From positions 3,271-67,270 of the forward strand of contig BOKR01000001.1 of NCBI GenBank assembly GCA_016861085.1: a DNA stretch of 64,000 nucleotides, in the 5' to 3' direction. Shown piece by piece: positions 11,517 through 38,195 of the stretch. The notes under the pieces are model-generated. The model was given only the letters and a program-made list of their open reading frames with translations. It made no database searches and had not been told where the DNA came from. Numbering within the stretch: position 1 is the first letter of the stretch; every line of letters starts with the position of its first letter. A program made the position numbers and the translations under genes. This stretch comes from Patescibacteria group bacterium. Lineage in GTDB: Bacteria > Patescibacteriota > Microgenomatia > UBA1400 > PJMF01.

Positions 11517-11534
11517 AAATGCTAGAATGAGCAC

Positions 11535-11843: not shown

Positions 11844-13615
11844 GTTTTTTCATCTGTCATTTGGGTCGGGGAGTATGCTGCACCCATATTTTCTACTCTT
11901 TGAGGCTGGATGCCATGTTTTGTTTGTAATTCTGCCCCTTCAATTAGGAGAGCTTTGTATTTTTCCTCAATGTTCATGTCACGGTTTCTTGCCAACTCAA
12001 CTTCCTTTTGTTCTTCCTTTATCTTAGTAACTTCTTCTGGAGTTAACGTCATTGGTGGATGACTTGGATCAATTTCTATGTATGAGGTTCGTTTCTTTTT
12101 TTGAAATGGTAATTGGATTTTGAAGAGTGGTTTTTTTAAAGGAAAGGCTGGTTCAAGGTCTTGAGGTTTTACTGAAACAGGGGGTTCTTTGGGTTGTTCA
12201 GGCTGAACGACAGTCGTCTTAGTCGGTTCGGAAAGGATACTTTGGTCAATTTTTTCTATGTAGAGTAGTTTTTCGGGATCGATATTATCAAGTTTACCTG
12301 AAAGGATGATTTCAATATCATCAAGTGTTTGTCTATTTTGGGCGAACACCCCTTTTCTATTGGTTTGTGGTTCTGCCACAGTAAGGCTTTGAGTCATGTA
12401 GTTTTCAATCAAGATGGATCTTTTGTATACAGTCTGGTCTTCAATTGACAGCTCTGAAAGGCCAACGAGAGAAACAATTTTTTCGATATCTTTTGCTTGC
12501 TCCAAGATTTGCGTGCATTTTAAATAAAGTTCGAAATGTTTTTGACCAATCACCTCTGGATTAACTGCGGAGGAGTTTGATGCCAAAAGATCAATTGCAG
12601 GTAATCTCCCGGACTGGTAAATATCTCTAGAAAGCACTATATAACTGTCTAGATAATAAAGAGCGGAACGAACACTATAATCAAGTAAGTCATCTGAAGG
12701 TAAATAGATTGCTTCAATGCTAGTTATGTATGCTTCTGGAGTGGAAGTGAGCATTTCATGGAACGTACCAACTTCAGACGGGAGGGTAGGCTGATATCCA
12801 TCTTCAGAAGGGACAGCGTGCATCAAAGTTGAAAGTTCATATCCTGCCTGACTAAAACGATACATATTATCCATAAAAAACAGCACGTCAGTTCCATGAT
12901 CTCTGAAATCTTCGGCAACCGTAGCTGCAGCGTAAGCAGTCCTAAACCGCACAGCAGGATTTTCGCCCATTTGTCCAACAATCATGACTGTTTTATCAAG
13001 TACTTTTGATTCTGCAAGGTTTTCAAGCAGTTCATGGGCTTCTCTAGAACGCTCACCCACAGCGGCAAACACTGAGACACTTTCTTTATTTGCGTTACTG
13101 GCAACGACAACATTATGAATTAGTTCGGTAAGGAGAATTGTTTTTCCTAATCCAGCACCACCAACAAGTCCGATTTTGCTGCCTTTTAATACAGGTGTGA
13201 AGAAATCAATTGCTCTAATTCCAGTGGTCAAAATTTCTGAAGGAGTAATTGCTGAATCAACTTCAGTAGGTATGTGGGTATGTAACGATTTAAATCGTTT
13301 CGGTTTAAAATCTTTATTATCTTGGGCATTACCAAATACATCAATTGCTCGCCCGAGTACTTCTTTACCTACTGGAATCAGCAGATTTTGTTCAGTGTTT
13401 TCAACGATATCTCCTCTGGAAATTTCATTTTTTTTGTTCAAAATGAAACAGTAGTACGTTTGATTTTCTTGAGCAGAGGAGACGACTTCCAATTTGATTT
13501 CTGGGTTATTTTTAAGAACAAGAACATCAAAGATTGCTGGTTGTTGCAACAAGAACTCAACAATGGCAACATTGTCTTGGATAGCTATAATTTTACCTGT
13601 TTTTTTCATGACCAA
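11840..13615 (-). CDS. atpD: F-type ATP synthase beta subunit with about 120-aa C-terminal extension
   Basis: P-loop GLVGGAGLGKT, DELSEED-region-like acidic segment, strong F1-beta similarity throughout. 591 aa against about 470 typical. The extension has a Pro-rich linker then Lys/Glu-rich helices. Confidence 0.9.
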   Translation of the reverse strand: MVMKKTGKIIAIQDNVAIVEFLLQQPAIFDVLVLKNNPEIKLEVVSSAQENQTYYCFILNKKNEISRGDIVENTEQNLLIPVGKEVLGRAIDVFGNAQDNKDFKPKRFKSLHTHIPTEVDSAITPSEILTTGIRAIDFFTPVLKGSKIGLVGGAGLGKTILLTELIHNVVVASNANKESVSVFAAVGERSREAHELLENLAESKVLDKTVMIVGQMGENPAVRFRTAYAAATVAEDFRDHGTDVLFFMDNMYRFSQAGYELSTLMHAVPSEDGYQPTLPSEVGTFHEMLTSTPEAYITSIEAIYLPSDDLLDYSVRSALYYLDSYIVLSRDIYQSGRLPAIDLLASNSSAVNPEVIGQKHFELYLKCTQILEQAKDIEKIVSLVGLSELSIEDQTVYKRSILIENYMTQSLTVAEPQTNRKGVFAQNRQTLDDIEIILSGKLDNIDPEKLLYIEKIDQSILSEPTKTTVVQPEQPKEPPVSVKPQDLEPAFPLKKPLFKIQLPFQKKKRTSYIEIDPSHPPMTLTPEEVTKIKEEQKEVELARNRDMNIEEKYKALLIEGAELQTKHGIQPQRVENMGAAYSPTQMTDEKT

Positions 13616-14478
13616 AATCCCATTCCAGACAATCTGTTTCGCTGTTTTTTATTAGCTTTGTACTTCATTGTTTTTAGTTTTAATCTTTTAACTTTTTCCA
13701 TTTCGCTCTCAAGATTACTTTGCGTGTGTTGCAATGTTGCGATTCTTGAACCCAAATTTGCCAAGTGTGCTTCTTTGATTTTATGCTGAAACAAGTTTGA
13801 CATAATTTGCAGTTCAAAGAAATGAAGAATTTTTCTTTTATCTGGTTCAAAAAGGAAGTGTTTAGCTTCTTTTTTTTCAGTTTCTGTATCAAGAGTAAGT
13901 GAGAGATCACCCGAGATGGTTTCAATTTGAGGTTTTTGTTCCATTAAGGAGATATAGTATGGGTTATACACGTTGATCTGCTCGTAGTTAAGCAGATGCT
14001 TCATAAGGTCTATATTGCCTCGCAAGTCGGTGTTTTTTTCAGTTAAATTAAAATATGTATAGGTTTGACTTTCCGGAAAAAATTCTTTGAATAGCTTTTT
14101 TGCAGTTGCACCAACGACCACAAGGTCAGTTTCCCTGCCAGTTACACTTTGTTTGTAAAAACTAAGGGACTCTCTGTTTATGCTGGTTGAGAATTTTGTT
14201 TCAAAAGAAATAAAAACATCAACGGTTTTGCCATTTTTTGTGAGGGTAGAAAAGCTAATGACTTGCTTGTTGTTGGGATTAATCTTGATTAACCTTCTAA
14301 GATCTTGTTTGAGATCGACAAACGTATCAAGCAGTCCTTGGAAAAATTTGCGACTGTTGATGGTATTATCTCGGTTGAGTTTCATTTGATAGATTGTTAA
14401 CTTTTGATATGCAGAAAAAAAGTTACCAATGGTATCTAGTGAAGCTTCTTCTGATTGCAGTTGTTTTACACTTGGCAT
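13606..14478 (-). CDS. atpG: F-type ATP synthase gamma subunit (divergent)
   Basis: Sits between atpA and atpD with overlaps on both sides. 290 aa. N- and C-terminal helical segments resemble the gamma coiled coil (…RIATLQHTQSNLESEMEKVKRL…). Confidence 0.6.
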   Translation of the reverse strand: MPSVKQLQSEEASLDTIGNFFSAYQKLTIYQMKLNRDNTINSRKFFQGLLDTFVDLKQDLRRLIKINPNNKQVISFSTLTKNGKTVDVFISFETKFSTSINRESLSFYKQSVTGRETDLVVVGATAKKLFKEFFPESQTYTYFNLTEKNTDLRGNIDLMKHLLNYEQINVYNPYYISLMEQKPQIETISGDLSLTLDTETEKKEAKHFLFEPDKRKILHFFELQIMSNLFQHKIKEAHLANLGSRIATLQHTQSNLESEMEKVKRLKLKTMKYKANKKQRNRLSGMGFWS

Positions 14479-15944
14479 AGACCTAATAGGAATGGTTTAT
14501 TTTTTTCTACTGTAGCAAGCAAATCCTTGAGCGATTTCGAATTTTCAATGATTTGGTCTAAAGTTACCTGAACGTCTTTCTTACCGTAATTTTTGTTTAA
14601 CTCGAATTTACAGGTTGTAATTACATTTTTATGAGATCTTTCGAACCAATCTAGCCAGATCATTGCGAGCAGAATAATTTGAATATTGAGGGGAATACCG
14701 TTGCTTTGACTAAAAAAGTCGGTAAGAAATTCACCTTTTTGTAAGATTTTTTGACTCTGTTCACTAATTTCACTGCCTAAGTGAGTAAGATTTCTAGTTT
14801 TTTGATAGCTGGTAAGGAAACTCGTGATTCTGAGATTAATATCTCTTTGTAGAGGTGATTGTGTTTGTTTTCCCACACGAGTAACAGAGAGACTTGTGTT
14901 GATTGCTGGTCTAAATCCCTGGTTGAAGAGTCTTGGTTCAAAAAGTAGGTGACCATCAGTAATGGAGATCAGATTTGAGGCGACAAAGTCAGTTAAGTCG
15001 CTATTTACAGTCCTTACAACTGGTAAACAAGTCAATGAAATAACTTTTTTTGGGTCAGTTGGGTGAGCATATGTTCCGGCTCTTTCAAGTAGTTGGGCTT
15101 GAGTAAAGAAGATATCACCAGGGTAGGAGTCACGACCAGGAAATTTCTTTGCAAGCAAAGAAATTTCCCGATAAAACTCAGCTTGCGAAGTAAGATCGTC
15201 AATAACAAGCAATACATTTTCTCCTTGTGAAACAACGTATTCTGCGATAGTCATTGCAGAGAATGGAGTAATAACTATCGCACTAATAGAGTCCTTCGGA
15301 GTAGTTGCAACAATAACAACAGAATCTACTACTCCTTGTTTGATAAAAAACTCGTGGGCTTCTCTAATATCAGAAGTTTTTTTTGCTACCATTGCGTAGA
15401 CAACTTTATTTCCAAGTAATGCTTGTTTCACAGCGAGGTTTTTAGCAAACGCACTTTTTCCTGACTTTCTATCTCCAATGAGCAACTCGCGTTGACCCTC
15501 ACCAAGAGGAAGTAGCAAATCAGTGATGCTGAACCCTGTAATCAATTGTCTATTAACTCGCCTTCGTTGCGTTATACTAGCTGGTTCTTGGTAAATTTCG
15601 TTGTATATGAGTGCAGCAGTTGAAAGTTTTTTTCTGCTAGTCATAAGTAAATCTCCCATTGGAGAGAAGACTGAGCCAAAAATGTTTGGGCTAATAGGAA
15701 AAGAAAGCTGTTTTTTAGTTCGGTACAGTTTTAGACCAACCCTAACTGGTGTTTTTGAAAATACCATAAGTTTAATTTCATTAGCACTAAAAGAGAGGAT
15801 TTGCCCTAAACTTTGGTCCTCAAATACTACCATTTCTCCTGGATTTATATTTGAAAAACCTTGAGCTTTTACCAACGGATGTTGCACAGAGGTGACTTCT
15901 GCGTATTCGCTGGCATCAGTTTGGTATTGTTGTGTTTGTATCAT
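14466..15944 (-). CDS. atpA: F-type ATP synthase alpha subunit
   Basis: P-loop GDRKSGKS (alpha-type GDRQTGKT). 492 aa. Conserved F1-alpha core. Confidence 0.9.
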   Translation of the reverse strand: MIQTQQYQTDASEYAEVTSVQHPLVKAQGFSNINPGEMVVFEDQSLGQILSFSANEIKLMVFSKTPVRVGLKLYRTKKQLSFPISPNIFGSVFSPMGDLLMTSRKKLSTAALIYNEIYQEPASITQRRRVNRQLITGFSITDLLLPLGEGQRELLIGDRKSGKSAFAKNLAVKQALLGNKVVYAMVAKKTSDIREAHEFFIKQGVVDSVVIVATTPKDSISAIVITPFSAMTIAEYVVSQGENVLLVIDDLTSQAEFYREISLLAKKFPGRDSYPGDIFFTQAQLLERAGTYAHPTDPKKVISLTCLPVVRTVNSDLTDFVASNLISITDGHLLFEPRLFNQGFRPAINTSLSVTRVGKQTQSPLQRDINLRITSFLTSYQKTRNLTHLGSEISEQSQKILQKGEFLTDFFSQSNGIPLNIQIILLAMIWLDWFERSHKNVITTCKFELNKNYGKKDVQVTLDQIIENSKSLKDLLATVEKNKPFLLGLCQV

Positions 15945-16390
15945 TGTAGTACTGTGGTTTCTATAGATCGTTTATATGTTTTTCCTTGAAAATCAATTTG
16001 AACACTTAATGAGAGATCTTTGTTAAAGGCATATTCAATGATAGCTGTGGGATGTACTGTGGCACGGATTCTTGTAGCAAGTTGTTCGACCTGTTCTTGA
16101 GTGGGGGAATAGCAAAGCGTCAATTTTGCTATTGGTAGCTTCGTGATATAGTTTTGTAAATTTGTGATGGATGCTATAACTTCTGTGGGAGTTTTTATAT
16201 TTTGAAGTAAGGTTTCGAACAAAACAAAGAAACGTTCATGTAACTGTTTTTTAATTCTTTCTTGAATTTTTTTTGAGTCTTGAGTATATGCAAGTTCTTG
16301 CAGGACAGTAAGAGACTCAAGCAGGAGTGCTTTGTCTTCAACAGTGACAACTAGGTCACGCACTAATGATTCGAGTTCATTTTTGACCAT
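15941..16390 (-). CDS. atpH: F-type ATP synthase delta (OSCP) subunit, short
   Basis: Sits between atpF and atpA with 4-bp and 14-bp overlaps. Helical N-terminal domain; C-terminal …LSVQIDFQGKTYKRSIETTV resembles the delta C-terminus. 149 aa. Confidence 0.5.
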   Translation of the reverse strand: MVKNELESLVRDLVVTVEDKALLLESLTVLQELAYTQDSKKIQERIKKQLHERFFVLFETLLQNIKTPTEVIASITNLQNYITKLPIAKLTLCYSPTQEQVEQLATRIRATVHPTAIIEYAFNKDLSLSVQIDFQGKTYKRSIETTVLQ

Positions 16391-17021
16391 TTTTTGCCGT
16401 TTCTTCTTGCCAAAGCTCGTTGATTAATTCTAGCGTTAGCTCATGCTTATCTAGAGTATGTAAAACTTTGCCTAAATATCTCTTTGCGACTTTGTTTACA
16501 AGTTGTTCGCTTTCTTTTGCTATCTTCTCAATTTGATCCTTTTTAAATGATTCAATCTCCCTTTGGGCGGATTGAGATTCAATTACTAACACATTAGAAA
16601 CTTTCTGCTGTAGTTCTACTACAGTTTTTTGTAGTAAAGTGCCGAGGTTTTTGATTTCTACTTCTGTTGCCTTAATTAAATCTTCTGACGATTTTTTAGC
16701 ATGGTCTTGAAGGAGAGTTTTTTGTTGTTCAACGATTTCATCAGTGATATCGTCAATTCTTTGATGTAGCTTTAAAGTGAAGTTTTGCACTTCTGAGTGA
16801 ACGTCATGATATTGGTCAAGGGTTTTTGAGATAATTTCTTGGGATTCACTTCTAGTAGCTGAAACCACTCTATCAAGCTGTTGCTTAATGTGTTCAAACT
16901 CTTTTTTGTAGTCTTCATCCATTTTTTCTATTCTTTTTTTATCAGCGCGCAACTTGTAAGCAATGATGAGTTCAAGAACGAGTCCTAAGATGACTATAGC
17001 TAATAAGTTATACGTTTGCAT
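16377..17021 (-). CDS. atpF: F-type ATP synthase subunit b
   Basis: Single N-terminal TM helix (LLAIVILGLVLELIIAY) followed by a long charged coiled coil. Position immediately upstream of atpH. Confidence 0.6.
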   Translation of the reverse strand: MQTYNLLAIVILGLVLELIIAYKLRADKKRIEKMDEDYKKEFEHIKQQLDRVVSATRSESQEIISKTLDQYHDVHSEVQNFTLKLHQRIDDITDEIVEQQKTLLQDHAKKSSEDLIKATEVEIKNLGTLLQKTVVELQQKVSNVLVIESQSAQREIESFKKDQIEKIAKESEQLVNKVAKRYLGKVLHTLDKHELTLELINELWQEETAKNGQK

Positions 17022-17031
17022 ACTTCCTTTG

Positions 17032-17856
17032 TTACAGCGTTACCACAAAATATGAGCCAGCAATTCCTGCTCCAATAATTGTGATACTTATTAATATATT
17101 AACAAAAATTCCGGTCATAATACTGCTTCGCGCAAGTGGGTTTCTTCCCAGGGCCTCAATACCTTTTTGAGATGTTCTTGAAAAGCTGATGAAGGCAATT
17201 GTGACGGCGGTGATGAGGATTACTCCTGCTACAACATATTTAAGAACTTCTTTTGGGTCATCGATTGCTGCAATTGCACTCAAGCTGACAATGTCTCGAA
17301 GGCGATCTGAAATTGTTTCTGAGTCTGGGGTGTCTTGTGCAAATGTGAAGTCTTTTCCTATCTGGACTTTGATGAGGTTTTTGTCTTGAGCCGTTGAACC
17401 GTTAAAATCTTCTTGGGCAATTCCGAGCGTAAAACCTGACTTTGTCGCTTTCATGCCAACACCAGGTTCAGAGGATGCTGTGATAAAGTCACCTTTAACG
17501 ATTGGCCCACTTTCTCCGGAAACCAAAACTGGTGATACCCCAAAACTGATAATTGGGATTTCATCACCATTTGTTGCTGTGGTATTTCCAACAAACTCGA
17601 TAGCTGGAAACAAGCTGACTGCTCCAATAATGCTTCTATCGTATGCTTCGTCACTTAACTGGTAAGAACCATTCTTATGGGAAACGATCATACCGTTCTC
17701 AATTGGTATATCATCTGGGTGCAAAATATCAACGGGGTAGGCAATACCGAAGTTTTCTTCAGCAGCTTCTTGTGCTTTCGTTGGAGAGCTAGTGGCGGGC
17801 AGCAAAACAACAAGCAGAAATACTACTGCAATGAAGTTTTTGAGTATTTGTCTCAC
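17032..17856 (-). CDS. atypical first gene of the atp operon: signal peptide, about 190-aa extracytoplasmic domain, C-terminal two-helix hairpin resembling an ATP synthase c-subunit that lacks the conserved helix-2 carboxylate
   Basis: C-terminal …VVAGVILITAVTIAFISFSRTSQKGIEALGRNPLARSSIMTGIFVNILISITIIGAGIAGSYFV aligns with the c-subunit loop motif (…EGIARQPE…), but no Asp/Glu at the helix-2 position. Occupies the slot where atpB/atpE are normally found. The resemblance is limited. Confidence 0.35.
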   Translation of the reverse strand: MRQILKNFIAVVFLLVVLLPATSSPTKAQEAAEENFGIAYPVDILHPDDIPIENGMIVSHKNGSYQLSDEAYDRSIIGAVSLFPAIEFVGNTTATNGDEIPIISFGVSPVLVSGESGPIVKGDFITASSEPGVGMKATKSGFTLGIAQEDFNGSTAQDKNLIKVQIGKDFTFAQDTPDSETISDRLRDIVSLSAIAAIDDPKEVLKYVVAGVILITAVTIAFISFSRTSQKGIEALGRNPLARSSIMTGIFVNILISITIIGAGIAGSYFVVTL

Positions 17857-18079
17857 GTATTCATTCTACAACTATCTTTCACTCGATGTAAATATAGATT
17901 ATTCAGTAATTTTTTGACATAAAAACACATCAAAGGGCATCTGTAAGAATTGAGTACAAAAGTTTGTTTTTGTATTTCAATTACATTCAACTTGAGGAAA
18001 TTTTGAGTAATAATATTGTTCTTAAGCATATTTTTATGCATATAAAAATTGCTATACGACAGTATTTTTCGCATATTGT

Positions 18080-21000
18080 TTGTCTATTAAATTGTCCAAA
18101 AAATTTGTACTATATACGCTAGGTATGTTTATTAACCAAAAAGCTCCAGCTAGAGGCAGGGGGTTCCTGTTTTTTGTTGTCCTTATTGTGGTTTTTGGTG
18201 CAAGTATAGCGGCAGGCTTTTACAGTGTTAGTAAATGGTTATTCGGACGCGATGAATCAACACAAATAACGCAAACAAATCCTGTTCAAGGTCGGGTTAA
18301 AGGTGAGACGACTGAGCAACCCAGTAAACAGAATTTAGATGCTGGAAATCAGCCACAAGTGTTAGGCCAAGTCAAAGCAGCCGAAGATGAGATTACAGAG
18401 AACAGTTTGGTTTTCAGATTGAAGGTTTTCTTTCTAGACACAATTCATGGTATATCAGCAAAGTTTGATACCGATTTGGAGGTTGGAAATGATGTAATCG
18501 TTGGTAACGATACAGATATTGGAGGAGACCTTACTGTAGCTGGAACCTTAATCACAGCAGACGAATTAATAGCTCCAAATGTAGTGTACTCAATTCTTGC
18601 AGGAACGGGAATTACAGTTGCAGGAACACAGGATATAACTATAACTAATAGTGATCTCGGATCTTCTCAATTAATTTTCAAGAATTTCAAGATTGGAGAC
18701 AATACTATTTCTGCAGGAAGCAATGATGATACATTAACTTGGCAAGGAACAAACGGAGTTTCGTTAAGTAATGACGGCAAAACAATCACTATTTCTGCAA
18801 GCGGAAGTGAGTTAAATGTCTCTGGTTGGACAGATGACGGTTCAACAGTGAGGTTAATCAGTGCTACAGATAACGTTGGAATTGGAACAACAACTGCAAC
18901 AGAAAAACTAACAGTATCCGGGAACGGAACATTGTCAGGAAACTTAGAAGTTGGTGGAAACCTAAATGTTCTAGGAAACACCACAGTTCTTTCTGGCTTC
19001 AACAATTCAGGCGGGGGTATTACAAATGCAGGAGCAATCACTGGAGCAACAGGATTTACCAGTTCAGGCACAATTACACTCTCAGGATTAAGTACAGGTT
19101 TAGTACAGAGTAGCTTTACTGGTGTGCTGAGTAGTAGTGCTCTCAACTTGAGCACAGGTTCAGCTAATGGTTATCTCACAGGAGCCTTGCCAGTTGCCAA
19201 CGGAGGCACAGGTCTTTCTAGTTACACAATTGGGGACATTTTGTATGCATCTGCAACAAATACACTTGCAAGCTTGGGAATTGGAGCAACAAATGAAGTT
19301 CTCACAGTTGCTGGAGGAGTACCAGTTTGGGCATCAGTAACAGGAGGTGGTGGAATTTGTCCAAACTGTTTAGTCAATGATCCAGGAAGTACTCAGACAA
19401 TAACTCCAGGAAGTGCAACAGCAACAGGGTTGGTAGTAAAGCAAGCAAGTGGTGGTAGTGTAGATACATTTAGAGTGGAAAGCTTTGATGGGGCAAATGT
19501 ATATTTCAAAATAGATTCAACCGGAAATGTAACCCTTGGAAATCAAACCAGTAGTGGTGTATTTACCGTTTCACCTGCAAGTACTGATCCAATATCTCTT
19601 TCTCCAGTAGCCCAAGGAGCAGGACAATTTACAGGCACAATCACTAGTGAAGACTTAACAGCAAACAGAACATGGACATTCCCAAACAACTCAGGAATAG
19701 TTTGTTTAGCATCAGGCAACTGTAGTGGTACATCAGCAGGTGTAGGTGGATCAGGAACAACGAACTATATTACCAAGTGGGATGGAACGTTTTCAGTAAC
19801 TGATTCTCTGCTGTATGACAATGGAACAAATGTAGGAATTGGAACGACTTCGCCTGTGAGTAAACTGACAGTCGTTTCTTCTGGAAACCTGTACGCAACC
19901 ACAATTCATAGTACTCACCATGGTTTACTAATAAGTACTGATGATAATTCAAGTACTAGAAGGTTGTTATCTCTTAAAAATCTTGCTGGAGGAATTCCAG
20001 GAGGAGGTACAGAAGTGTTTGTAGTAACAGCGGGAGGAAACGTAGCTATCGGTACAACAGCTCCAACAGCAAAGCTACATGTTCAGGGTACTGCATTAGT
20101 GACTAGCACATTGAATGTATCTGGAGCAACTACACTTGCTTCAACTCTTGATGTGACAGGTGCAATTACCACAGGTGGAAATCTTTCTGTAAATGGAACT
20201 GGAAATAGTTATGTGATGGGTAATTTTGGGATTGGAACAAGTAACCCGAGTACAACAGCAGCTTCAGGAAGACGATTAGAAATAAGAGGTAGTAATCCAG
20301 GTCTATTGTTTGGTCATTCCACAGAAGCTAATACCAGTGGTGAGATTTGGTATGACCACGGTACTGCAGATCTGAATATTGATAACAGATACAATGGAGC
20401 ATTTGCAGATATACATTTTAGGACAACAACTTCGGGGACTGCAAATAGTGCAATGACAATAAAAGGGGATGGCAACGTCGGAATTAACACAACTGCACCA
20501 TCGGCACGATTACATTTAGTTGGAGTTGGAACAACAAACAGTACAGAAACACTCAGGGCAGTAAATTCAGCTGGAACGCTTGGGTTGATTGTCAATGACA
20601 ATGGTTCGATTTATACTCCAGATGCTACAACGCCAACAGGTACCTACAACTTTGTATTTGGACCAAACACAATTGGAGGAAGTAATAACATTGTTTTGGG
20701 TCAATCAAATGCTACTTCACAAAGTGGTGGTGGAAGTGTAAATGCCATCATTGGTCAGAATAACAGTATGACTAGCTCTGTGAGTTATGCTTTTGGTAGA
20801 GGGCTGATTAGTGGTTCTTCTTTCTCTAACTTTATTGGATATGGCACGAATAGTGGATATTTCACTTCAGCTCAAACTGCCCGTATACAAATTCATGCAA
20901 GCGTTGGCAATGTTCCAGCAATTAATTTCTTGACCAAAGAGACCAGTAGAATGCACATAAATGGTGATGGCAATGTTGGAATTGGCACAACTGTTTCTAC

Positions 21001-22231
21001 TGGAAAATTGAATGTTGAGGGTGCAGCAACAGGCAAAGCACTGGTAGTACTCAATGAAACGGGAGGTCAAGATATTTTTGTTGCATCTGCATCTGGTGTG
21101 AATAGATTTAGAATTCAAAATAATGGTAGTACTTTTGTTTCAAGTGACTCAACGAGTGCATTCTTAGTATCAGATATATCGGGAAATAATATTTTAAGAA
21201 TTGCTGGTTCTACTCGTAGAATTGGAATCAATGATCAAACATCAGATGCAACTTTGGAAGTTGTCAAAAATAGCACAGATAATATTTTTGCAGTAAGCAG
21301 TTCAGAAAATGCAGATGGTGATTATTTTATGGTTACGAATGGTGGGAATGTGGGTATTGGGTCGACGAGTCCACTTTTAGGATTAGAGATTGTAAATAAA
21401 GCTGCTGATTTTTATACAGGCTATGATGCTTCATTACTAATTAAAAATAGTACTTATAATCAGGAACCACGAATAGTGCTCTACAATTCATCTGGGGCGT
21501 CTCTTGGAACACCAACCGGAGAACTATATTTTGCATCAAATAGCAATTATCAAACTTTTGGATCTGGTGTGAGAGGTTATTCAGCAAGCTCTTTAGGAAG
21601 TGCTACTGGTCTTCAGTTCTTTACTACTGGAACAGCTCAAACACGTTTGACCATAAATGAAACTGGACTTGTAGGAATTGGTACTACTAGTCCAACATCA
21701 TTGCTTCATGTTTCAGATAATTCAGGCACTTGGCTTTCTTCTGAGTATCGATCTGCAAACTTATTAGTGAACCGAAGTTTTAGTACAGCAAGTAGTGATG
21801 TGACTTCGTACGGTCAGTATATAAATAACACATCATCTCGTGCAACTGGAGCGAATAATCTTACAAACATTGGTTTATATGTTAATGTGCAGGGTGCACA
21901 ATCCAATTATGCAGCTATTTTTAATGGCGGCAACGTTGGAATAGGCACCACGTCTCCAAGAGGTAATCTAGACATCGGTGGAGATAATGCAGAACTACAT
22001 ATTGGAACTGCAGCTAAGGGATATATTGGATTAGGGACACAGGCTGATTATAGCGCAAACTGGACAAACCAAGCAGCAATTGCCATAAATACAGTTGTTC
22101 TAGAAGGAACTGGAAGTAATGGTTTGAATATAAGAAATCATACAGACGGTGCCTGGGGATCGGTTTTTGCTAGTACCTACACAACATACGGGGGATCACT
22201 AACGACGCCTTCATTTGGGTCATCTAATTAA
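18080..22231 (+). CDS. giant membrane-anchored fibre protein, N-terminal 1383 codons; repetitive GNVGIGTT(S/T)P beta-helix/tail-fibre-like repeats; in frame with the next ORF across a single TAA
   Basis: N-terminal TM anchor (FLFFVVLIVVFGASIAAGFYSV). Dozens of degenerate repeats centred on NVGIGTTxP…KL.V.G. N-terminal 200 aa paralogous to the 23770 gene. Stop TAA at 22229-22231 is in the same frame (frame 2) as ORF 22235-23773. Confidence 0.8.
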   Translation: MSIKLSKKFVLYTLGMFINQKAPARGRGFLFFVVLIVVFGASIAAGFYSVSKWLFGRDESTQITQTNPVQGRVKGETTEQPSKQNLDAGNQPQVLGQVKAAEDEITENSLVFRLKVFFLDTIHGISAKFDTDLEVGNDVIVGNDTDIGGDLTVAGTLITADELIAPNVVYSILAGTGITVAGTQDITITNSDLGSSQLIFKNFKIGDNTISAGSNDDTLTWQGTNGVSLSNDGKTITISASGSELNVSGWTDDGSTVRLISATDNVGIGTTTATEKLTVSGNGTLSGNLEVGGNLNVLGNTTVLSGFNNSGGGITNAGAITGATGFTSSGTITLSGLSTGLVQSSFTGVLSSSALNLSTGSANGYLTGALPVANGGTGLSSYTIGDILYASATNTLASLGIGATNEVLTVAGGVPVWASVTGGGGICPNCLVNDPGSTQTITPGSATATGLVVKQASGGSVDTFRVESFDGANVYFKIDSTGNVTLGNQTSSGVFTVSPASTDPISLSPVAQGAGQFTGTITSEDLTANRTWTFPNNSGIVCLASGNCSGTSAGVGGSGTTNYITKWDGTFSVTDSLLYDNGTNVGIGTTSPVSKLTVVSSGNLYATTIHSTHHGLLISTDDNSSTRRLLSLKNLAGGIPGGGTEVFVVTAGGNVAIGTTAPTAKLHVQGTALVTSTLNVSGATTLASTLDVTGAITTGGNLSVNGTGNSYVMGNFGIGTSNPSTTAASGRRLEIRGSNPGLLFGHSTEANTSGEIWYDHGTADLNIDNRYNGAFADIHFRTTTSGTANSAMTIKGDGNVGINTTAPSARLHLVGVGTTNSTETLRAVNSAGTLGLIVNDNGSIYTPDATTPTGTYNFVFGPNTIGGSNNIVLGQSNATSQSGGGSVNAIIGQNNSMTSSVSYAFGRGLISGSSFSNFIGYGTNSGYFTSAQTARIQIHASVGNVPAINFLTKETSRMHINGDGNVGIGTTVSTGKLNVEGAATGKALVVLNETGGQDIFVASASGVNRFRIQNNGSTFVSSDSTSAFLVSDISGNNILRIAGSTRRIGINDQTSDATLEVVKNSTDNIFAVSSSENADGDYFMVTNGGNVGIGSTSPLLGLEIVNKAADFYTGYDASLLIKNSTYNQEPRIVLYNSSGASLGTPTGELYFASNSNYQTFGSGVRGYSASSLGSATGLQFFTTGTAQTRLTINETGLVGIGTTSPTSLLHVSDNSGTWLSSEYRSANLLVNRSFSTASSDVTSYGQYINNTSSRATGANNLTNIGLYVNVQGAQSNYAAIFNGGNVGIGTTSPRGNLDIGGDNAELHIGTAAKGYIGLGTQADYSANWTNQAAIAINTVVLEGTGSNGLNIRNHTDGAWGSVFASTYTTYGGSLTTPSFGSSN

Positions 22232-22234
22232 CAA

Positions 22235-23773
22235 GTGGGCATGTATTTCCCAGGCTCAACGGGAGTTGGACTTGTTACAAGCCAATTGGAACGACTTACT
22301 GTTAACTCTGTTGGTAATGTCGGTATAGGTACCACAACACCTGTGGGTAAACTAAATGTCGAAGGTGCAGTTACAGGTAAGGCGTTGGCAATATTTAACG
22401 AAACTGGAAACCAAGATATTTTAACAGCTAGTGCAAGTGGTTCAACAAAATTTGCAGTTACTAACGGTGGAAACATATTGTTACGAGGAACGTCCCCTTC
22501 TATTGATACTGGTAACTTGGCAACGCTAACTTTTAGTGTTGCAAATGCAAATAGAGTGCAGATAGATGGTGCCTATCTTGAAACAAATTTTTTGAGATCA
22601 CATTCTGGTGCAGGTACTTCATTAATTGTTAGAGGTAATAATTTACAAACTGCCAATATTTTTGAGGTAGAGGATAGTAATGGTACTGATTTTTTCACAA
22701 TTGACACTAGTGGCAACGTCGGCATCGGCTCCACAACTCCAGGTCAAAAACTAGATGTAGTCGGCAACGCCCGTTTCTCTGCTGTTGGTTCTGATGCATA
22801 TGCCTCAGATTTACATCTCACTGCAGATGGAACTCTCACAACCGCTGCATCTGATATTAGACTGAAGAAAGATTTTGTTGAGCTCAATGACAGTGCAACA
22901 TTAGACAAAATTCTACAACTTAAAACCTACAACTTCAATTGGAAGAGTAACAACTCTGCTGATATTGGTATGGTTGCCCAAGAAGTAGCTACTATCTTCC
23001 CAGAACTTACCTTCACCAACCAAGTTGATGGATACATGGGTATCAATTATTCAAGATTCTCTTCATTACTCATTAGTGGAATGCAGGCTCAACAAGCACA
23101 GATTTCATTATTACAAAATGCCTTAACATTTAATTCAGACGGTTCTGTAGTTGTTGCAACCACATCGGCTCAAGAAAACAATTCAGAGGAAAACACGGCT
23201 CAACAATTACTTGGCAGTTACGCTTCTCTTTCTGAAAATATTTGGAAGTTCCTTGTTGAAGTGAGATTCTCAGCTTTGGCAGTCTTTGAAAACTCTGTGC
23301 AATTTTTGAGTGCCGTTGTCTTCAAAAATGACGTTATTGTTGATGGCAATTTGATTCTGAATCACAATCAGGCTGGAACAGTAACCATTCCTACTGGCAA
23401 GGCAGGAGCTCGAGTTACGTTTAGCCAAGCATTTGAGCAAATGCCAATCATTACACTAACATCAACTCAAAAAGTTGCTGGCGAATACTGGATTTCTCAG
23501 ACAAGTAACTCTGGTTTTACTATTGAGTTTTCTCAAGCTCAAACACAAGATATCGCTATTAACTGGCAAGTCTCAGTTACCAATAGCGGTGAAGGTGTAG
23601 CAGTTGAAGCATTTGATTTTGGTACAAATAGTGAACAGGCACAAGAAACGCAAGATGTCTCACAGACAAACCCAGAGCCAATTACTGAAGATTTAGCAGA
23701 AGTTGTAGAGGAAGCCACCCAAGAGTCGGCGATTCTTGGCGCAACTGATTCTGGAGAGGTGGTTGCAGAATGA
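22235..23773 (+). CDS. C-terminal portion of the fibre protein, containing a peptidase S74-like intramolecular chaperone auto-processing domain
   Basis: Starts with the same GNVGIGTTTPVGKLNVEGAVTGKALAIFNETG repeat as the upstream ORF. SDIRLKKDFVELNDSATLDKILQLKTYNFNWK…GMVAQEVATIFPELT…GYMGINYSRFSSLLISGMQAQQAQISLLQ matches the tailspike/endosialidase C-terminal chaperone domain. Same frame as 18080-22231, separated by one TAA. Confidence 0.75.
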   Translation: MGMYFPGSTGVGLVTSQLERLTVNSVGNVGIGTTTPVGKLNVEGAVTGKALAIFNETGNQDILTASASGSTKFAVTNGGNILLRGTSPSIDTGNLATLTFSVANANRVQIDGAYLETNFLRSHSGAGTSLIVRGNNLQTANIFEVEDSNGTDFFTIDTSGNVGIGSTTPGQKLDVVGNARFSAVGSDAYASDLHLTADGTLTTAASDIRLKKDFVELNDSATLDKILQLKTYNFNWKSNNSADIGMVAQEVATIFPELTFTNQVDGYMGINYSRFSSLLISGMQAQQAQISLLQNALTFNSDGSVVVATTSAQENNSEENTAQQLLGSYASLSENIWKFLVEVRFSALAVFENSVQFLSAVVFKNDVIVDGNLILNHNQAGTVTIPTGKAGARVTFSQAFEQMPIITLTSTQKVAGEYWISQTSNSGFTIEFSQAQTQDIAINWQVSVTNSGEGVAVEAFDFGTNSEQAQETQDVSQTNPEPITEDLAEVVEEATQESAILGATDSGEVVAE

Positions 23774-26700
23774 AAAAACGCACAATCTTTCTTCTAGCTT
23801 TCATTCTAACCTCTGCATATTTTGGTGTGGGATCTGTAAATTCTTGGCTGAGAGGAACTGATACAACAGGAACAGTTCTTGGAGAGTCTGACCAGCCAAC
23901 TAGTAACGGATTAGTTGCTCAAAATGGAGTTAGTTCAGGTTTTGGAACTAGTGTGGGAAGTGATTTACCAACTGCCCCAGTTTCAACTGGAGTAGTCAAA
24001 GCAGTAGAGGATGAGATTAGTGAGAATAGTTTAGTATTTAGACTTAAAATTTACTTTTTGGAAGCAATTCATGGAATATCAGCAAAGTTTGATACTGATG
24101 TAGAGGTTGGTAATGATCTAACAGTTGGTAATGATGTAATAGTTAACAATGATCTTGAAGTTGGTGGTGATTTAATTATTGGTGACACTATTATCACTCC
24201 TGATGGAATCACTGCAGAGAATATCATTTATAGTCTTACTGCGGGAACAGGGGTATCACTGAGTGGTACTCAAGATGTTACGATAACAAATACAGATCTT
24301 GGGTCATCACAGAATATTTTCAAAAACTTTAAGATTGGTTCAAACACAATTTCCGCAAGTTCCAACGATGATACGTTAACTTGGACATCTGGTACTGGGA
24401 TTTCTTTATCCAATTCTGGTAAGACGATCACGATTTCTGCTAGTGGCAGTGACCTTAACGTTTCTGGTTGGACAGACGATGGAACAGCGGTGCGCTTGAC
24501 TACTTCGACTGATAACGTGGGGATTGGAACAGCAACCCCAGGATACAAACTGCATGTCGTTGGGACAAGCTATTTTAGTGGCCAGGCAACATTTGCAGGC
24601 GGAACTGTGATCTCCTCAGGGATTGACAATTCTTCTGGTGGAATTACAAATGCTGGTCCAATCACTGGGGCAACAGGGTTAACTTCGTCTGGAACGATTA
24701 CGTTTTCAGGTCTATCAACAGGGATTGTGCACTCAAACGGGAGTGGAGTTTTGTCATCTTCTGCTTTGAATCTCGCTGGAGGTGCAACAGAAATTACCGG
24801 TACACTTCCCACCACAAACGGTGGCACAGGCATAACTTCATATGCGACTGGTGATATTATTTATTCTTCGGCTACGAACACACTCACAACTCTTGGAATT
24901 GGCTCAACCAATGAAGTTCTCACGGTGGCAGGTGGGGTACCAACTTGGGCCACTATTACTGGTGGAGGTGGACTCTGTAGCAACTGTTTGGTGAATAATC
25001 CGGGGAGTACGCAGACAATCACACCAGCAGCGGCTACAGCAATTGGCTTGGTTATCAAGCAGGCGTCATCGGGAAGCGTGGACACTTTCAGAGTTGAAAG
25101 CAACGATGGTTCAAGTGTGTATTTCAAGATCGATTCTTCAGGTAATGTCACGTTAGGAAATCAAACCAGTAGTGGAGTATTCACTGTTTCACCCTCAAAC
25201 ACTGATCCGATTTCAATATCACCAGTTGCACAAGGGGCAGGGCAGTTTACAGGAACAATCACTTCTGAAGACCTCACGGCGGCTCGAACATGGACATTCC
25301 CGGATGCAACAGGATCCGTATGTTTAACTACGGGGAACTGTGCTGGTGTTGGAGGACAAATTGGAGGTTCTGGAACGACTAACTACATTGCCAAGTTCTC
25401 AAACTCTTCAAATATTACAACTTCTCTCTTATACGATGACGGTAACAATGTTGGACTAGGAACATCGAGTCCAGTTCATCTATTCCAGATAATGGGCGCA
25501 AAAATAGGTAAGGCGCTTACAGTGCTTAACGAAACCGGAGACCAGGCAATTTTTGTAGCATCATCTTCTGGGACAAATAGATTTATTATTCAAAATGATG
25601 GAAATGTAGGTATTGGAACAAGCACTCCAACCTCGCTGTTCCATGTGAATGGGGCAGTAGACTTTGATTCAACTTTTGGGGTAAATGGAGCAACTACACT
25701 TGGTTCAACATTGGATGTGACGGGACTAGCTACTTTTGGTGGGAATGTAGGGATTGGAACAACTACTCCGACTTCTGCTTTACAAGTGTACGGGACTGAT
25801 CCTCAAATCAGACTCACAAGAAATGGAGGATACACTTTAACTTTTGATGCTTTCGATGGTGGTGGTAGTCCGAACATTGTGAGTAGTGGTCCTTCATTAA
25901 AATTTTTGACGAGTACTTCAAATAATTTTCTTACTACTGCTGACAACGCATTTGGAACACTTAATGGTCATTTAGGTGTAGCTGTTACAGGACTTTACGT
26001 TACTGGTAAAGGAGTTAATTCATATGTTACTTCGGCGTTTAGATCTGCAAACAGCAATCAAACAGGTGATTTAATAAGAATGTACGATAGTTCAAACGAT
26101 ATTCTTGGCCAATTTGTGCCTATTTCGACCACTGACCAGCGGTTACGATTTGTTCTATATAACACTTTGGAAACAACTGTCACTAACTATGAACGGTTAA
26201 CAATTTATCCTGATACAACGAATAGTATTTTTAGAATTGAAGCAGAGAGTGGTGGGACAGGAACCTTGCGAAATCTTGTATTACAAGGTGGTGGGGGAAA
26301 CGTTGGAATCGCTTCTATTGCACCTGGTAGAACATTAGATGTCGTAGGTACTGGTCGTATTACCGATACTGGTTCAACTACGCCAGTTTTAACTATTGAT
26401 CAAAATGACTCAAGTAATAATGCAACTACCTTAAGACTAGAACATGGGGGTGGTGGTGAAAATAGTCGTAGAATTATTGAAGCAATAAGTGGTGGGAGTG
26501 AAGTATTCAGATTGTTTCCAACAGGAAAGATAGAAACAATCGTTAATGGAGGTTCCACTGACTATGATGCTGCTATCTTTAATCAAACTGACACATCAAC
26601 TGCTCATGCTGGCGCTGCACTCCAACTCAATCATTATGGTACTGGAGCAGGTTCTAGCAGAGTGTTAACAGCTTTTAACGCTGCTGGGGGTAGTCCTAGT

Positions 26701-29700
26701 GAGATCATGTTTTTACAACCTGATGGGACATTTTATGTAAGAGGTAACGCTGGAGTTGGGACAACTGCTCCAATTGGGAAACTCAATGTTGAAGGCGCTG
26801 CCATTGGCAAAGCCCTCGCTATCCTTAATGAAACTGGTGACCAAGCGATTTTTGTTGCTTCTGCTTCTGGTACGAATAGATTTATTATTCAAAATGGCGG
26901 AAATGTTGGAATTGGATCTATCACGCCAGCTGCAAATCTACATGTTTATCAGGAAAGTCCAACACCTAACCAAATCATGTTTCAAGTTGGCACGGGTGCA
27001 GTAGCAACGAGGTTCACAGTAGATGAGGATGGAGATGGTCATTTTGGTGGGGATGTTGATTTTAGAACTCTACTAACCGGAAACGGTACAGTCACGGGGC
27101 CATCACATAGTTTTGTGAATGACACTAATCTAGGCATGTATCGCTATGGCACTGACACTTTAAGTTTGGCAACAGCAGATGCAGATAGGTTGATAATTGA
27201 TGCCTCAGGAAATATTGGAATTGGAACTACTGCTCCTGGAACCCAGCTAGAACTTTATGGCAACAAAATTCACATTCGATTATTTGACACCTTTGGTTCT
27301 GGAGCGATTATTAGAGAGACTTCAGATAATCTAATATTGCAATCACAGGCAGGAAGCATTGTTGGAATAAGTGGTGCTGCTGACGGAACGACTTCCTTTC
27401 AATTTCAAAATTCATCAAATGTGAGTAGGTTTAATGTAAACGATCTTGGCTATGTGGGAATTGGTGTGAACGCTACGGCTAGTGTTGGTTCTGATACTGC
27501 GGCAGTGAACATCAACGGAGCCAAGACAGGAAAAGCATTATTTGGACTTAACGAAACAGGTAATCAAGCAATCTTTGCGGCTTCTGCTTCTGGTACTAAT
27601 CGCTTCCTTATTCAAAATGACGGAAATGTCGGGATTGGAACAACAACAGTTTCTTCACTTTTCACTATATCTGAAAGTAACTCAGCAACAAGTTTAACTA
27701 CTTTTGATTCAACAGTAAGGTTGCAGAATTTGAATAGTGGTGACAGCACTTTCTCAAGAATAGGATTTTATGACACCACTTATCTTGGTGGTATAACTTT
27801 TGTGAACAGAGGGCAATACAGCAGTGACATTCGCTTTGAAACAAGAGGAGGGAGTGTAAGTAATTGGCCTGTAACAAGGATGATTGTTACAGATGGGGGT
27901 GCTATTGGTGTTAACCATGCAAATCCTTTGAGTCAGCTTCAAGTCAATGCTCAGTCTAATACTGGGAATTATATTTTGTCAGATTGGAATAGCACTGGAA
28001 ACAAAATACCTGCGGCAATTTTTTCCGCAACGAATAATGGAGGAAGTACTCCAGCCGCTGCAGAACCGACTTTGGTTTTGGGTAGAAAAGGCGTTGGTGG
28101 GCAGTCATTTGACAACATAGTTGACTTCAAACTCCGAAGATATGAAGTTAGTAGTACAGAGCCTCGAACAGCATTAGATATAGGTTTACAACACACAAAC
28201 TCTGCAACAACTACGGATGTATTGACTTTGCTTAGTAACGGGAATGTTGGTATAGGAACTTCTGCTCCTGCCCATGCCCTTGAGGTCAATGGCAATATTG
28301 CGGTTGAACAATTTTTATATCATAGAGGTGATACAGATACTTTTTTTAGATTTGGTACCAATCAGTGGCAAGTAGTTGCTGGAGGAGTACAATTTTTTGA
28401 ATTTGATGGGGGTGCAACAAATGTTGGTGCCTTTAACTATAACAACCTTGACGTTGACTTTCGCATTGATGGTGACACCAATGATGGAGTCTTTTTTGTG
28501 GATGGTGCTCTAGAAAATATTGGTATTGGTACGACTGTCCCAGGGGCAAAATTGCATCTTATCACTGATGCTGCAGACTATGCCGCTGAAATTTACAACG
28601 ACGGAAACGCTACTACTCGGGCAGGTTTGTTAATCCAGGCAGGACTTGATGACCAGACAGCAGTAGGCCCCTCAACTTTAATTCAGTTCAATGACGGTGA
28701 TGGTGGTGCAGTTGGTTCAATTACTTTTGGTAACTCGCTAACAGCGTACAATACCAGTTCTGACGTACGACTCAAAGACGTCTCTGGTGTTTCTAGTAAA
28801 GGATTATCAGATTTGATGAATATCAACGTGTATGACTATAGTTTCAAAGCAGACTCAAATAAGAGACTGCATACTGGGTTTTTAGCACAGGAGCTATACC
28901 AAATCTATCCAGATGCAGTTACAGCGTATCTTGATGATACCAATAAGTATTGGCAAGTTGACTATGGCAAACTTACTCCGCTGATTATTAAGTCAATTCA
29001 AGATCAACAAAAACAAATTGAGAGTTTGGCCTTAGAAATAGATGCAACTGGTAAAGTTATTTCACACGGTTCTAAAGAGGTAACTCCTGATGAGTCAGAG
29101 GCTACAGAAGCTCTTGAGAGTTCAACTATCCAAGATTTAAGTTCACATGCAACGATCTCAGATCTTGTTTGGACGTTTATTCAAGAGGTAATCTTTACAG
29201 TTAAAACCACTTTCTTGGCTAGTGTTGAATTTGTAAAAGACGTTACTTTCAGGGGATCAATCAAATTTTCTGGTGACACAGTTGGTAAATTCGTAGTTCC
29301 TGCTGGTGCTTTGAGAGTTGAGGTTCCATTTGATTTTGCTTTTAGCCAAGCACCAACAGTTTATTTGTCAGCCCAAAGTCAGATTATTGGTGGATATAGC
29401 TTAGAATCTGTCAGCACATCAGGGTTTGTTTTGAAGTTTGAAGTAGCTCAAACTTCTGAGAAAGTATTTGATTGGCTGGCAGTGTTAAGTTCAGATGAAA
29501 ACACAGCCACCATTAAAGTACTAGAAGAATCGAGTACAAGTTTACAGTCCATTGACAATGTAGATCAAGACGGGGAGGTTGGTGGGGCAACAACAGAAGG
29601 TTCAACTGACACACAAGAGGCTGTAGAAGAGACTCCAAATCCAGAACCAGAAGAGACAACTTCTCAAGCTAGCTCTGAGGCTGAGGCATCTGTGAGTGCC

Positions 29701-29718
29701 ACCAATTCAAGTAATTAA
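23770..29718 (+). CDS. giant membrane-anchored fibre protein (1982 aa) with GIGTT repeats and C-terminal peptidase S74-like intramolecular chaperone domain; paralogue of 18080-23773
   Basis: ATGA start overlap with the previous ORF. N-terminal signal/TM. VEDEISENSLVFRLKIYFLEAIHGISAKFDTDVEVGND… paralogous to the 18080 gene. SDVRLKDVSGVSSKGLSDLMNINVYDYSFKADSNKRLHTGFLAQELYQIYPDAVT…QVDYGKLTPLIIKSIQDQQKQIESL is the S74 chaperone domain. Acidic C-terminal tail. Confidence 0.85.
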   Translation: MKKRTIFLLAFILTSAYFGVGSVNSWLRGTDTTGTVLGESDQPTSNGLVAQNGVSSGFGTSVGSDLPTAPVSTGVVKAVEDEISENSLVFRLKIYFLEAIHGISAKFDTDVEVGNDLTVGNDVIVNNDLEVGGDLIIGDTIITPDGITAENIIYSLTAGTGVSLSGTQDVTITNTDLGSSQNIFKNFKIGSNTISASSNDDTLTWTSGTGISLSNSGKTITISASGSDLNVSGWTDDGTAVRLTTSTDNVGIGTATPGYKLHVVGTSYFSGQATFAGGTVISSGIDNSSGGITNAGPITGATGLTSSGTITFSGLSTGIVHSNGSGVLSSSALNLAGGATEITGTLPTTNGGTGITSYATGDIIYSSATNTLTTLGIGSTNEVLTVAGGVPTWATITGGGGLCSNCLVNNPGSTQTITPAAATAIGLVIKQASSGSVDTFRVESNDGSSVYFKIDSSGNVTLGNQTSSGVFTVSPSNTDPISISPVAQGAGQFTGTITSEDLTAARTWTFPDATGSVCLTTGNCAGVGGQIGGSGTTNYIAKFSNSSNITTSLLYDDGNNVGLGTSSPVHLFQIMGAKIGKALTVLNETGDQAIFVASSSGTNRFIIQNDGNVGIGTSTPTSLFHVNGAVDFDSTFGVNGATTLGSTLDVTGLATFGGNVGIGTTTPTSALQVYGTDPQIRLTRNGGYTLTFDAFDGGGSPNIVSSGPSLKFLTSTSNNFLTTADNAFGTLNGHLGVAVTGLYVTGKGVNSYVTSAFRSANSNQTGDLIRMYDSSNDILGQFVPISTTDQRLRFVLYNTLETTVTNYERLTIYPDTTNSIFRIEAESGGTGTLRNLVLQGGGGNVGIASIAPGRTLDVVGTGRITDTGSTTPVLTIDQNDSSNNATTLRLEHGGGGENSRRIIEAISGGSEVFRLFPTGKIETIVNGGSTDYDAAIFNQTDTSTAHAGAALQLNHYGTGAGSSRVLTAFNAAGGSPSEIMFLQPDGTFYVRGNAGVGTTAPIGKLNVEGAAIGKALAILNETGDQAIFVASASGTNRFIIQNGGNVGIGSITPAANLHVYQESPTPNQIMFQVGTGAVATRFTVDEDGDGHFGGDVDFRTLLTGNGTVTGPSHSFVNDTNLGMYRYGTDTLSLATADADRLIIDASGNIGIGTTAPGTQLELYGNKIHIRLFDTFGSGAIIRETSDNLILQSQAGSIVGISGAADGTTSFQFQNSSNVSRFNVNDLGYVGIGVNATASVGSDTAAVNINGAKTGKALFGLNETGNQAIFAASASGTNRFLIQNDGNVGIGTTTVSSLFTISESNSATSLTTFDSTVRLQNLNSGDSTFSRIGFYDTTYLGGITFVNRGQYSSDIRFETRGGSVSNWPVTRMIVTDGGAIGVNHANPLSQLQVNAQSNTGNYILSDWNSTGNKIPAAIFSATNNGGSTPAAAEPTLVLGRKGVGGQSFDNIVDFKLRRYEVSSTEPRTALDIGLQHTNSATTTDVLTLLSNGNVGIGTSAPAHALEVNGNIAVEQFLYHRGDTDTFFRFGTNQWQVVAGGVQFFEFDGGATNVGAFNYNNLDVDFRIDGDTNDGVFFVDGALENIGIGTTVPGAKLHLITDAADYAAEIYNDGNATTRAGLLIQAGLDDQTAVGPSTLIQFNDGDGGAVGSITFGNSLTAYNTSSDVRLKDVSGVSSKGLSDLMNINVYDYSFKADSNKRLHTGFLAQELYQIYPDAVTAYLDDTNKYWQVDYGKLTPLIIKSIQDQQKQIESLALEIDATGKVISHGSKEVTPDESEATEALESSTIQDLSSHATISDLVWTFIQEVIFTVKTTFLASVEFVKDVTFRGSIKFSGDTVGKFVVPAGALRVEVPFDFAFSQAPTVYLSAQSQIIGGYSLESVSTSGFVLKFEVAQTSEKVFDWLAVLSSDENTATIKVLEESSTSLQSIDNVDQDGEVGGATTEGSTDTQEAVEETPNPEPEETTSQASSEAEASVSATNSSN

Positions 29719-32843: not shown

Positions 32844-33357
32844 GTGCGTTGTTAAGTTGCGTATTACAGACTTTTTCATATTTTAAACTATTTTGCAAGT
32901 ACCAATCTTAGTTTCTAAGGCTTTTTTTACAATTTTTAACCTCAACTTTCTTCTTTTGATGTCGTGACACTCACCAAGTGACAAGACATGAAGTATGGGT
33001 TAACAGGTATGACCCGATTTTTGTATTTTGGCGATGGAAATCTTAAATCTCTGCTAAGATTCTAATGCCTAAGACCCTTATTTTTGCTGTTTATATTTAA
33101 GCCTTTTTCTGTATTTCCTATTAGTGGATCAAAAAATAGCTATTTACTCACAACCAAAATTAACACGAAACAGATTTGGCCATTTTTTATATTTGAGTAT
33201 AAAATAATAGTCATATTATACTATATTTTTAAGAAAAACTGAAGTCAAATTAGAACAAAAAAATTGTTCAAAAACATTCGTGCAATTTTCGTATTCTAGA
33301 TTTACGTTTTTTTATTGATCACAAGGAGGATGAAGTTGCTATTTAAGGAGAAAAAGC

Positions 33358-33386
33358 TTGCATCAAAACAAATTTTGGAATACAAT
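33358..33386 (+). promoter_or_regulatory. sigma70-like promoter of the argS leader (TTGCAT-17 nt-TACAAT)
   Basis: -35 TTGCAT (33358-33363), 17-nt spacer, -10 TACAAT (33381-33386); about 400 nt upstream of argS. Confidence 0.55.
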
Positions 33387-33392
33387 ACATGC

Positions 33393-33722: not shown

Positions 33723-33781
33723 GAGTATTTGAGGCAAATGGGGTAGTATTAAATTAGTAAATCAAAATTAAGATAACCAGT

Positions 33782-35617: not shown

Positions 35618-35634
35618 GTAAAGCAACATTAGTG

Positions 35635-38177: not shown

Positions 38178-38195
38178 TTTTTTTAAGGAAACTAT

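Follow-up and report, generated by a model that had tools for sequence, protein, structure and literature searches.

Has a single in-frame stop codon, set in the middle of the shaft of a giant surface-fibre gene, recently broken that gene, or does it belong to an arrangement that still works? The question is raised by a 64,000-nt stretch of DNA (hereafter the window; contig BOKR01000001.1, positions 3,271 to 67,270 of the forward strand, GenBank assembly GCA_016861085.1) from the uncultured Patescibacteria metagenome-assembled genome (MAG) BroJett025, in which two fibre genes lie in tandem and the two pieces of the first, gene 1, are annotated as two hypothetical proteins. Here we argue that the TAA separating these pieces is very probably a very recent CAA-to-TAA nonsense mutation, and gene 1 a nascent pseudogene that has been inactivated independently in two populations. 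This was the first of several explanations listed in an earlier reading of the window made from sequence alone (the sequence-only reading), and it is the one that comparison with a near-identical population and with uninterrupted relatives favours.

The + strand reads ...TCA TCT AAT TAA CAA GTG GGC ATG TAT TTC... at the junction, with the TAA at 22229-22231. As the sequence-only reading described, the open reading frames (ORFs) on either side, 18080..22231 and 22235..23773, share one frame, with only this TAA plus one CAA codon between them, and continuous translation over the junction gives ...TTPSFGSSN*QVGMYFPGSTGVGLVTSQLERLTVNSVGNVGIGTTTP.... The upstream piece (ORF1) is open from 18080 and probably starts at the ATG chosen by gene callers (18125), giving 1368 aa; for the downstream piece (ORF2) the frame stays open for 513 codons past the TAA, and annotation begins separately at ATG 22241 to give a 510-aa protein. 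A protein search identified the latter as GIK83395.1, 'MAG: hypothetical protein BroJett025_00170 [Patescibacteria group bacterium]', from a 1.17-Mb contig; the upstream piece is GIK83394.1 (BroJett025_00160) and the paralogue encoded by gene 2 (ORF3, 23770-29718) is BroJett025_00180, for which an exact-protein look-up gave no match.

Several features indicate that the two pieces were one gene. Pfam places a Peptidase_S74 domain (PF13884; intramolecular chaperone auto-processing) at aa 206-258 of ORF2, at 53.7 bits against a cutoff of 22, and finds the domain otherwise in the paralogue and not in ORF1, bearing out the earlier remark that the upstream piece lacks the C-terminal chaperone domain of its paralogue. 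Because 513 open codons follow the stop and this significant domain match lies in that same frame, a split single gene is supported far beyond chance. The joined product of gene 1 can be aligned with the paralogue along its full length (36% identity; query 19-1877, subject 6-1980), and the module lying across the stop, TTPSFGSSN*QVGMYFPG...ERLTVNSVGNVGIGTTTPVGKLNVEGAVTGKALAIFNETGNQ, is likewise 36% identical to a module in the paralogue. The SDxxxK catalytic Ser/Lys motif defined for this domain (PMC10769870; PMC11058221) is intact in both S74 domains of the window, as SDIRLK in gene 1 and SDVRLK in gene 2, and apart from the TAA there is no other decay in gene 1 of the window.

The most direct evidence on the age of the stop comes from a sister population, represented by the Logan per-run assemblies SRR8466082 and SRR8466088 and 99.98% identical to the window; here and below, an allele is one assembly consensus per population, and two populations are compared. 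A protein search recovered P0001 (SRR8466082) and P0002 (SRR8466088), both at 100% identity to the query over a 764-aa region spanning the junction and both reading ...FGSSNQQVGMYFPG... (...FGSSNQQVGMY...) over the stop site. Between the window and the 14.3-kb contig of SRR8466082 there are exactly three differences. The first is at position 22229, where the window has T and SRR8466082 has C, making the codon TAA in the one and CAA (Gln) in the other, with no further difference within kilobases on either side. Since the sister population has CAA, the stop is read as a new C-to-T mutation; and since the 31-mer around 22229 occurs only once in the window, the paralogue is not the source of the CAA allele.

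The second difference lies in gene 1 as well, 944 nt upstream of the stop site, where a T5 tract (21285-21289) in the window is T6 in SRR8466082. T6 is a +1 frameshift leading to a truncated product of 1065 aa, which was actually called in that assembly (P0121); this independent lesion in the sister population was beyond what a reader of the window could see. The third difference, A in the window and G in SRR8466082 at 25042, produces Ile425Val in the paralogue. SRR8466088 shows these same three differences together with a synonymous T/C at 26838, again in gene 2, and has zero differences from the window in 8745-20142 and 32231-38737; across the flanking genes (18.1 kb compared) the populations do not differ at all. 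All 4 differences among 29,737 compared bases are thus in the fibre genes, whose share of those bases is 39% (p about 0.023). The lesion appears very young, because the rest of the gene is undecayed and a sister only 4 differences away in 29.7 kb keeps CAA. Stop-creating changes account for 3.9% of the possible substitutions in gene 1. Small as it is, this sample speaks for relaxed or negative selection acting on gene 1, not for chance.

It could be objected that the true base at 22229 is C and that gene 1 is intact, the TAA having arisen through sequencing, assembly or polishing, a possibility that the sequence-only reading had also raised. A single base does separate this TAA from the CAA of other assemblies, and consensus errors occur in MAGs. 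However, the Logan assembly of DRR258782 matches the window exactly over 13.4 kb, TAA included, with the contig recorded in 3 samples, so that the stop is not peculiar to a single assembly, and position 22229 lies in neither a homopolymer nor a repeat; we regard such an error as very unlikely.

More distant comparisons agree with a gene that was once continuous. Three syntenic loci were recovered, each placed, as are the two tandem fibre genes of the window, between the ATP synthase operon and comEA/comEC. An uncultured Patescibacteria locus (L001, CAJQIG01) and one from Candidatus Pacebacteria (L002, PFRS01) each have one uninterrupted gene, of 1547 aa and 2290 aa respectively; the closest relative (L029, GCA_964619745.1) has a tandem pair of 1460 + 1580 aa, both with S74 and with a 4-nt overlap. 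All of these genes run uninterrupted into an S74 region, and a separate C-terminal gene was found in none of the three loci. This comparison of orthologous loci, which the sequence-only reading had proposed, therefore gives no sign of a two-gene pattern among relatives. The module interrupted by the TAA is contiguous in L001 and L002 at 50-55% identity, including ...GNVGIGT..P.GK..V.GA..GKAL.I.NETGNQ..., confirming that the repeat module runs across the junction. In the distant relatives (36-44% identity) the repetitive central shaft aligns ambiguously and residue-level orthology at the stop cannot be placed, leaving the module-level alignment and the near-identical sister allele as the informative comparisons for the stop site. 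The arrangement of shaft and S74 on the same polypeptide is thus present across this junction in the sister allele (P0001/P0002) and in the orthologues, as it is in gene 2, and is broken by the TAA in gene 1 of the window.

Taken as a nascent pseudogene, gene 1 would have the following history. The common ancestor of both populations would have carried T5 plus CAA, in an intact gene 1 of 1882 codons. In the window lineage a single C-to-T transition would have changed Gln1369 (CAA) to TAA. Translation would now halt partway through a shaft repeat module, with 1368 residues made, and the exported product would lack its last 513 residues, the S74 domain included. Such a truncated product would be expected to fail to trimerise or to fold properly. 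The downstream piece of 510-513 codons would be an orphaned gene fragment rather than a gene in its own right, and any ORF2 product made by re-initiation at ATG 22241 would probably stay in the cytoplasm, apart from the exported N-terminal piece, because it has no export signal. The sister lineage would have lost the same gene independently, through the +1 frameshift from T5 to T6. Together these steps would mean that, of two redundant fibre genes, one has been inactivated repeatedly and independently, and either relaxed constraint after duplication or selection against displaying fibre 1 could yield such a pattern.

Programmed readthrough of the stop, or reassignment of the codon, would restore a full-length fibre despite the TAA. 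The frame is indeed kept perfectly past the stop and the base after TAA is C, which in E. coli generally makes a weaker termination context. Yet TAA is the commonest terminator of the window (23 of 43 genes) and so is not reassigned, the sole tRNA in the window is Arg-CCT, and the 120 nt that begin with the stop codon show no stronger folding than shuffled sequence does (z = -0.18). The stop is, furthermore, absent from the 99.98%-identical sister and from all orthologues. Being a single mutation old, it has left no time for a recoding signal to evolve nearby, and the frame beyond it would be preserved simply because the stop is recent. Readthrough, although named in the sequence-only reading, is thus exceedingly improbable.

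Alternatively, the split could be functional, with ORF2 expressed alone and acting in trans as a chaperone or tip for the ORF1 shaft, as the sequence-only reading suggested of a trans-acting chaperone fragment. ATG 22241 sits 9 nt past the stop, where termination and re-initiation would be possible; annotation pipelines call ORF2 as a gene; and its S74 catalytic motif is intact. But ORF2 begins in the middle of a conserved shaft module, and it has no N-terminal hydrophobic segment that could serve as an export signal or anchor, unlike ORF1 and ORF3, both of which have a strongly hydrophobic one. No such split occurs in the related genomes (L001, L002 and L029), and the sister population is continuous at this point and split elsewhere. 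S74 is also described as an intramolecular, trimerisation-dependent self-cleaving domain (PMC11058221; PMC10769870), its action in cis only being taken from secondary descriptions in these papers. A promoter and terminator scan returned sites at background level (35 against 32 expected), none of them immediately upstream of ORF2, and Shine-Dalgarno analysis found most genes of the window without a clear Shine-Dalgarno sequence. We consider a working two-gene system extremely unlikely.

The two different lesions also invite the idea of on/off control, phase-variable or contingency-like, in which frequent and possibly reversible mutations vary which attachment fibre is displayed. Gene 1 is inactivated by different lesions in the two near-identical populations, one lesion being a homopolymer length change (T5/T6), and all differences between the populations fall within the two fibre genes. 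Moreover, an intact gene 1 allele was absent from the matches of two protein searches; a cluster look-up of ORF1 alleles returned the 1368-aa and 1065-aa forms only. JGI metagenome contigs, scanned for the junction with the variable base left as N, contained no copy of it and so added no further alleles. Nevertheless, the TAA lies in unique, non-repetitive sequence and a nonsense substitution would revert only at the base-substitution rate, so that the variable site envisaged in the sequence-only reading finds no support here. The case is weak for T5/T6 as well: T5 is short relative to classical contingency tracts and is just one of 22 runs of at least five identical bases in gene 1 (43 in both genes), and with one consensus allele per assembly no ON allele was seen. 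On/off control is accordingly improbable, if somewhat less so than readthrough or a split chaperone system.

A further possibility, which we put forward tentatively and regard as doubtful, is that gene 1 is under recurrent selection for inactivation, independent populations of this episymbiont-type bacterium repeatedly switching off one of two host-attachment fibres by whichever mutation comes first. If this were true, the purpose might be a changed partner specificity, or escape from something that uses the fibre as a receptor, and the tandem fibre pair would constitute a mutational on/off repertoire in a lineage for which few host-attachment determinants have so far been identified.

Some points weigh against a recent nonsense mutation and a nascent pseudogene. 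The alleles being assembly consensus, heterogeneity within the populations at 22229 or at the T tract is possible; the 3 samples with the TAA contig may all be from the project of the MAG, which would make them technical rather than biological replicates; and the comparison covers two populations only, with the clustering of differences in the fibre genes reaching no more than modest significance. The truncated product is presumed to have lost its function, and among related fibres the NS74 MATs of Bdellovibrio (mosaic adhesive trimeric fibres) dispense with S74 (PMC10769870), so a fibre without this domain is possible in principle; these, however, end in other folded tip domains, whereas the truncated gene 1 product ends mid-module. 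Finally, given the weak use of Shine-Dalgarno sequences in this genome, the missing one before ORF2 says little on expression.

If gene 1 is a nascent pseudogene, BroJett025_00160 and BroJett025_00170 should be annotated as one disrupted gene instead of two hypothetical proteins, and the split should not be counted as an instance of recoding or as a split chaperone system. The locus would also serve as a small and clean case of micro-evolution within one uncultured Patescibacteria lineage, with differences over ~30 kb confined to two giant S74-terminated fibre genes. The fibres would then be changing faster than the rest of the locus, perhaps as surface determinants that are selectively switched off, and would be candidate determinants of cell-cell attachment; this is suggestive only.

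What kind of fibre is being lost can be judged from known systems. Fibre genes 1 and 2 encode very long membrane-anchored cell-surface fibres of the phage-tail-fibre or Bdellovibrio MAT type and, to judge from their domains, are members of the class of trimeric fibres terminated by S74. Patescibacteria live by attachment to other cells, as Bdellovibrio does. A phmmer search against PDB sequences matched the shaft repeats of ORF2 to Bd2133 (8OND_A; E = 3.5e-6, four repeat stretches), itself a member of the MAT family (PMC10769870). In Bdellovibrio, 13 of 21 MAT members end in S74 with an SDxxxK motif (PMC10769870); there the domain is both chaperone and self-cleaving protease and ensures productive trimerisation (PMC10769870; see also PMC11058221), self-cleavage of Bd3182 at the catalytic Ser having been studied by protein expression with an S782A mutant (PMC10769870). 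As in the S74-terminated MATs of Bdellovibrio bacteriovorus (e.g., Bd3182; Caulton et al. 2024, PMC10769870), the window genes encode long surface fibres of the cell itself, with an N-terminal export signal, a repetitive beta-helical shaft and an S74 end with SDxxxK. The MAT family is characterised by a signal peptide and, after it, a conserved beta-rich N-terminal domain of ~130 aa; ORF1 and ORF3 have a hydrophobic N-terminal segment, and residues 1-592 of ORF1 give no Pfam match. At 1882 and 1982 aa, the window proteins have about double the length of the Bdellovibrio ones (roughly 1000); they also carry ~250 residues past S74 with a weak H-type-lectin-like signal, and form a Patescibacteria tandem pair adjoining comEA/comEC, in which gene 1 is broken.

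Phage fibres and tailspikes, such as the K1F endosialidase (endoNF) and the L-shaped tail fibre pb1 of phage T5, share with the window proteins a C-terminal Peptidase_S74/ICA (intramolecular chaperone auto-processing) domain with conserved Ser and Lys (PMC11058221). Here, by contrast, the proteins are much longer and the locus is chromosomal, among housekeeping genes. The fibre genes are flanked by genes for LeuRS, the F-type ATP synthase operon, ComEA, ComEC, a metallo-beta-lactamase-fold protein and ArgRS, with no phage genes among them; because these neighbours (LeuRS, ATP synthase, ComEC, ArgRS) are housekeeping genes, the locus is part of a cellular chromosome and not of a phage. As for the manner of loss, gene 1 resembles those nascent pseudogenes of bacterial surface adhesins in which strains closely related to one another differ by single nonsense or frameshift lesions: each lineage has a single lesion, frame and domains are otherwise undamaged, and an intact paralogue adjoins the gene. 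It departs from them in bearing an independent lesion in each of two near-identical uncultured populations, with no intact allele sampled. Coordinates of the features are collected in Table 1.

Table 1. Features of the tandem fibre genes, in window coordinates.
Feature	Position	Strand	Details
5' part of fibre gene 1 (ORF1)	18125..22231	+	1368 codons plus TAA; BroJett025_00160 (GIK83394.1)
N-terminal hydrophobic anchor/signal of ORF1, FLFFVVLIVVFGASIAAGF	about 18164-18220	+	
T5 tract, codons 1054-1055 of gene 1	21285..21289	+	T6 in SRR8466082 and SRR8466088
TAA nonsense codon, Gln1369stop	22229..22231	+	CAA in sister population
3' part of fibre gene 1 (ORF2)	22232..23773	+	513 codons plus TGA, same frame
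Peptidase_S74 domain of gene 1	22850..23008	+	SDIRLK at 22850-22867
Fibre gene 2 (ORF3), BroJett025_00180	23770..29718	+	1982 aa, complete in window
S74 domain of gene 2	28759-28923	+	aa 1664-1718, 43.9 bits against a cutoff of 22; SDVRLK at 28759-28776

Gene 2 begins inside the end of gene 1, its start overlapping the gene 1 stop by 4 nt (ATGA, 23770-23773), and the tandem pair of L029 has a matching overlap (L029 10001-10004). Because it occurs in both, this 4-nt overlap suggests that the pair is co-transcribed and translationally coupled, and early termination in gene 1 might then also alter the expression of gene 2. In the sister population gene 2 is open in both contig pieces that cover it, up to a break at about 25587-25616. 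The Logan contigs of DRR258782, SRR8466082 and SRR8466088 that cover ORF3 all break at this place, which implies a repeat longer than the assembler k-mer; assemblies of this kind systematically break up long repetitive fibre genes.

Tails of ~250 residues follow the Pfam S74 match in both fibre proteins (23009-23770 and 28900-29715). S74 is normally the extreme C-terminus and is cleaved off. The two tails give sub-threshold matches to H-type lectin (E = 0.15 and 0.013), and a possible lectin-like domain downstream of S74 would be unusual.

Small-gene pairs stand on both sides of the tandem fibre genes of L029 (4017-5418 and 14780-16053), each with one gene bearing an AbiEii toxin-type Pfam match; these pairs are absent from the window. 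Furthermore, a set of giant homologues of 1100-2300 aa (P0139, P0143, P0148, P0154, P0157, P0051, P0064 and P0120) carry precomputed Pfam matches to MerR/HTH_17, an excisionase-type DNA-binding family, and are named 'excisionase family DNA binding protein', which is odd for surface fibres and may reflect a false family match or a gene fusion. In the window, the ATP synthase operon adjoining the fibre genes (11840-17856, minus strand) includes three ORFs of 149, 214 and 274 aa without significant Pfam matches, in the positions expected of the delta, b and a subunits.

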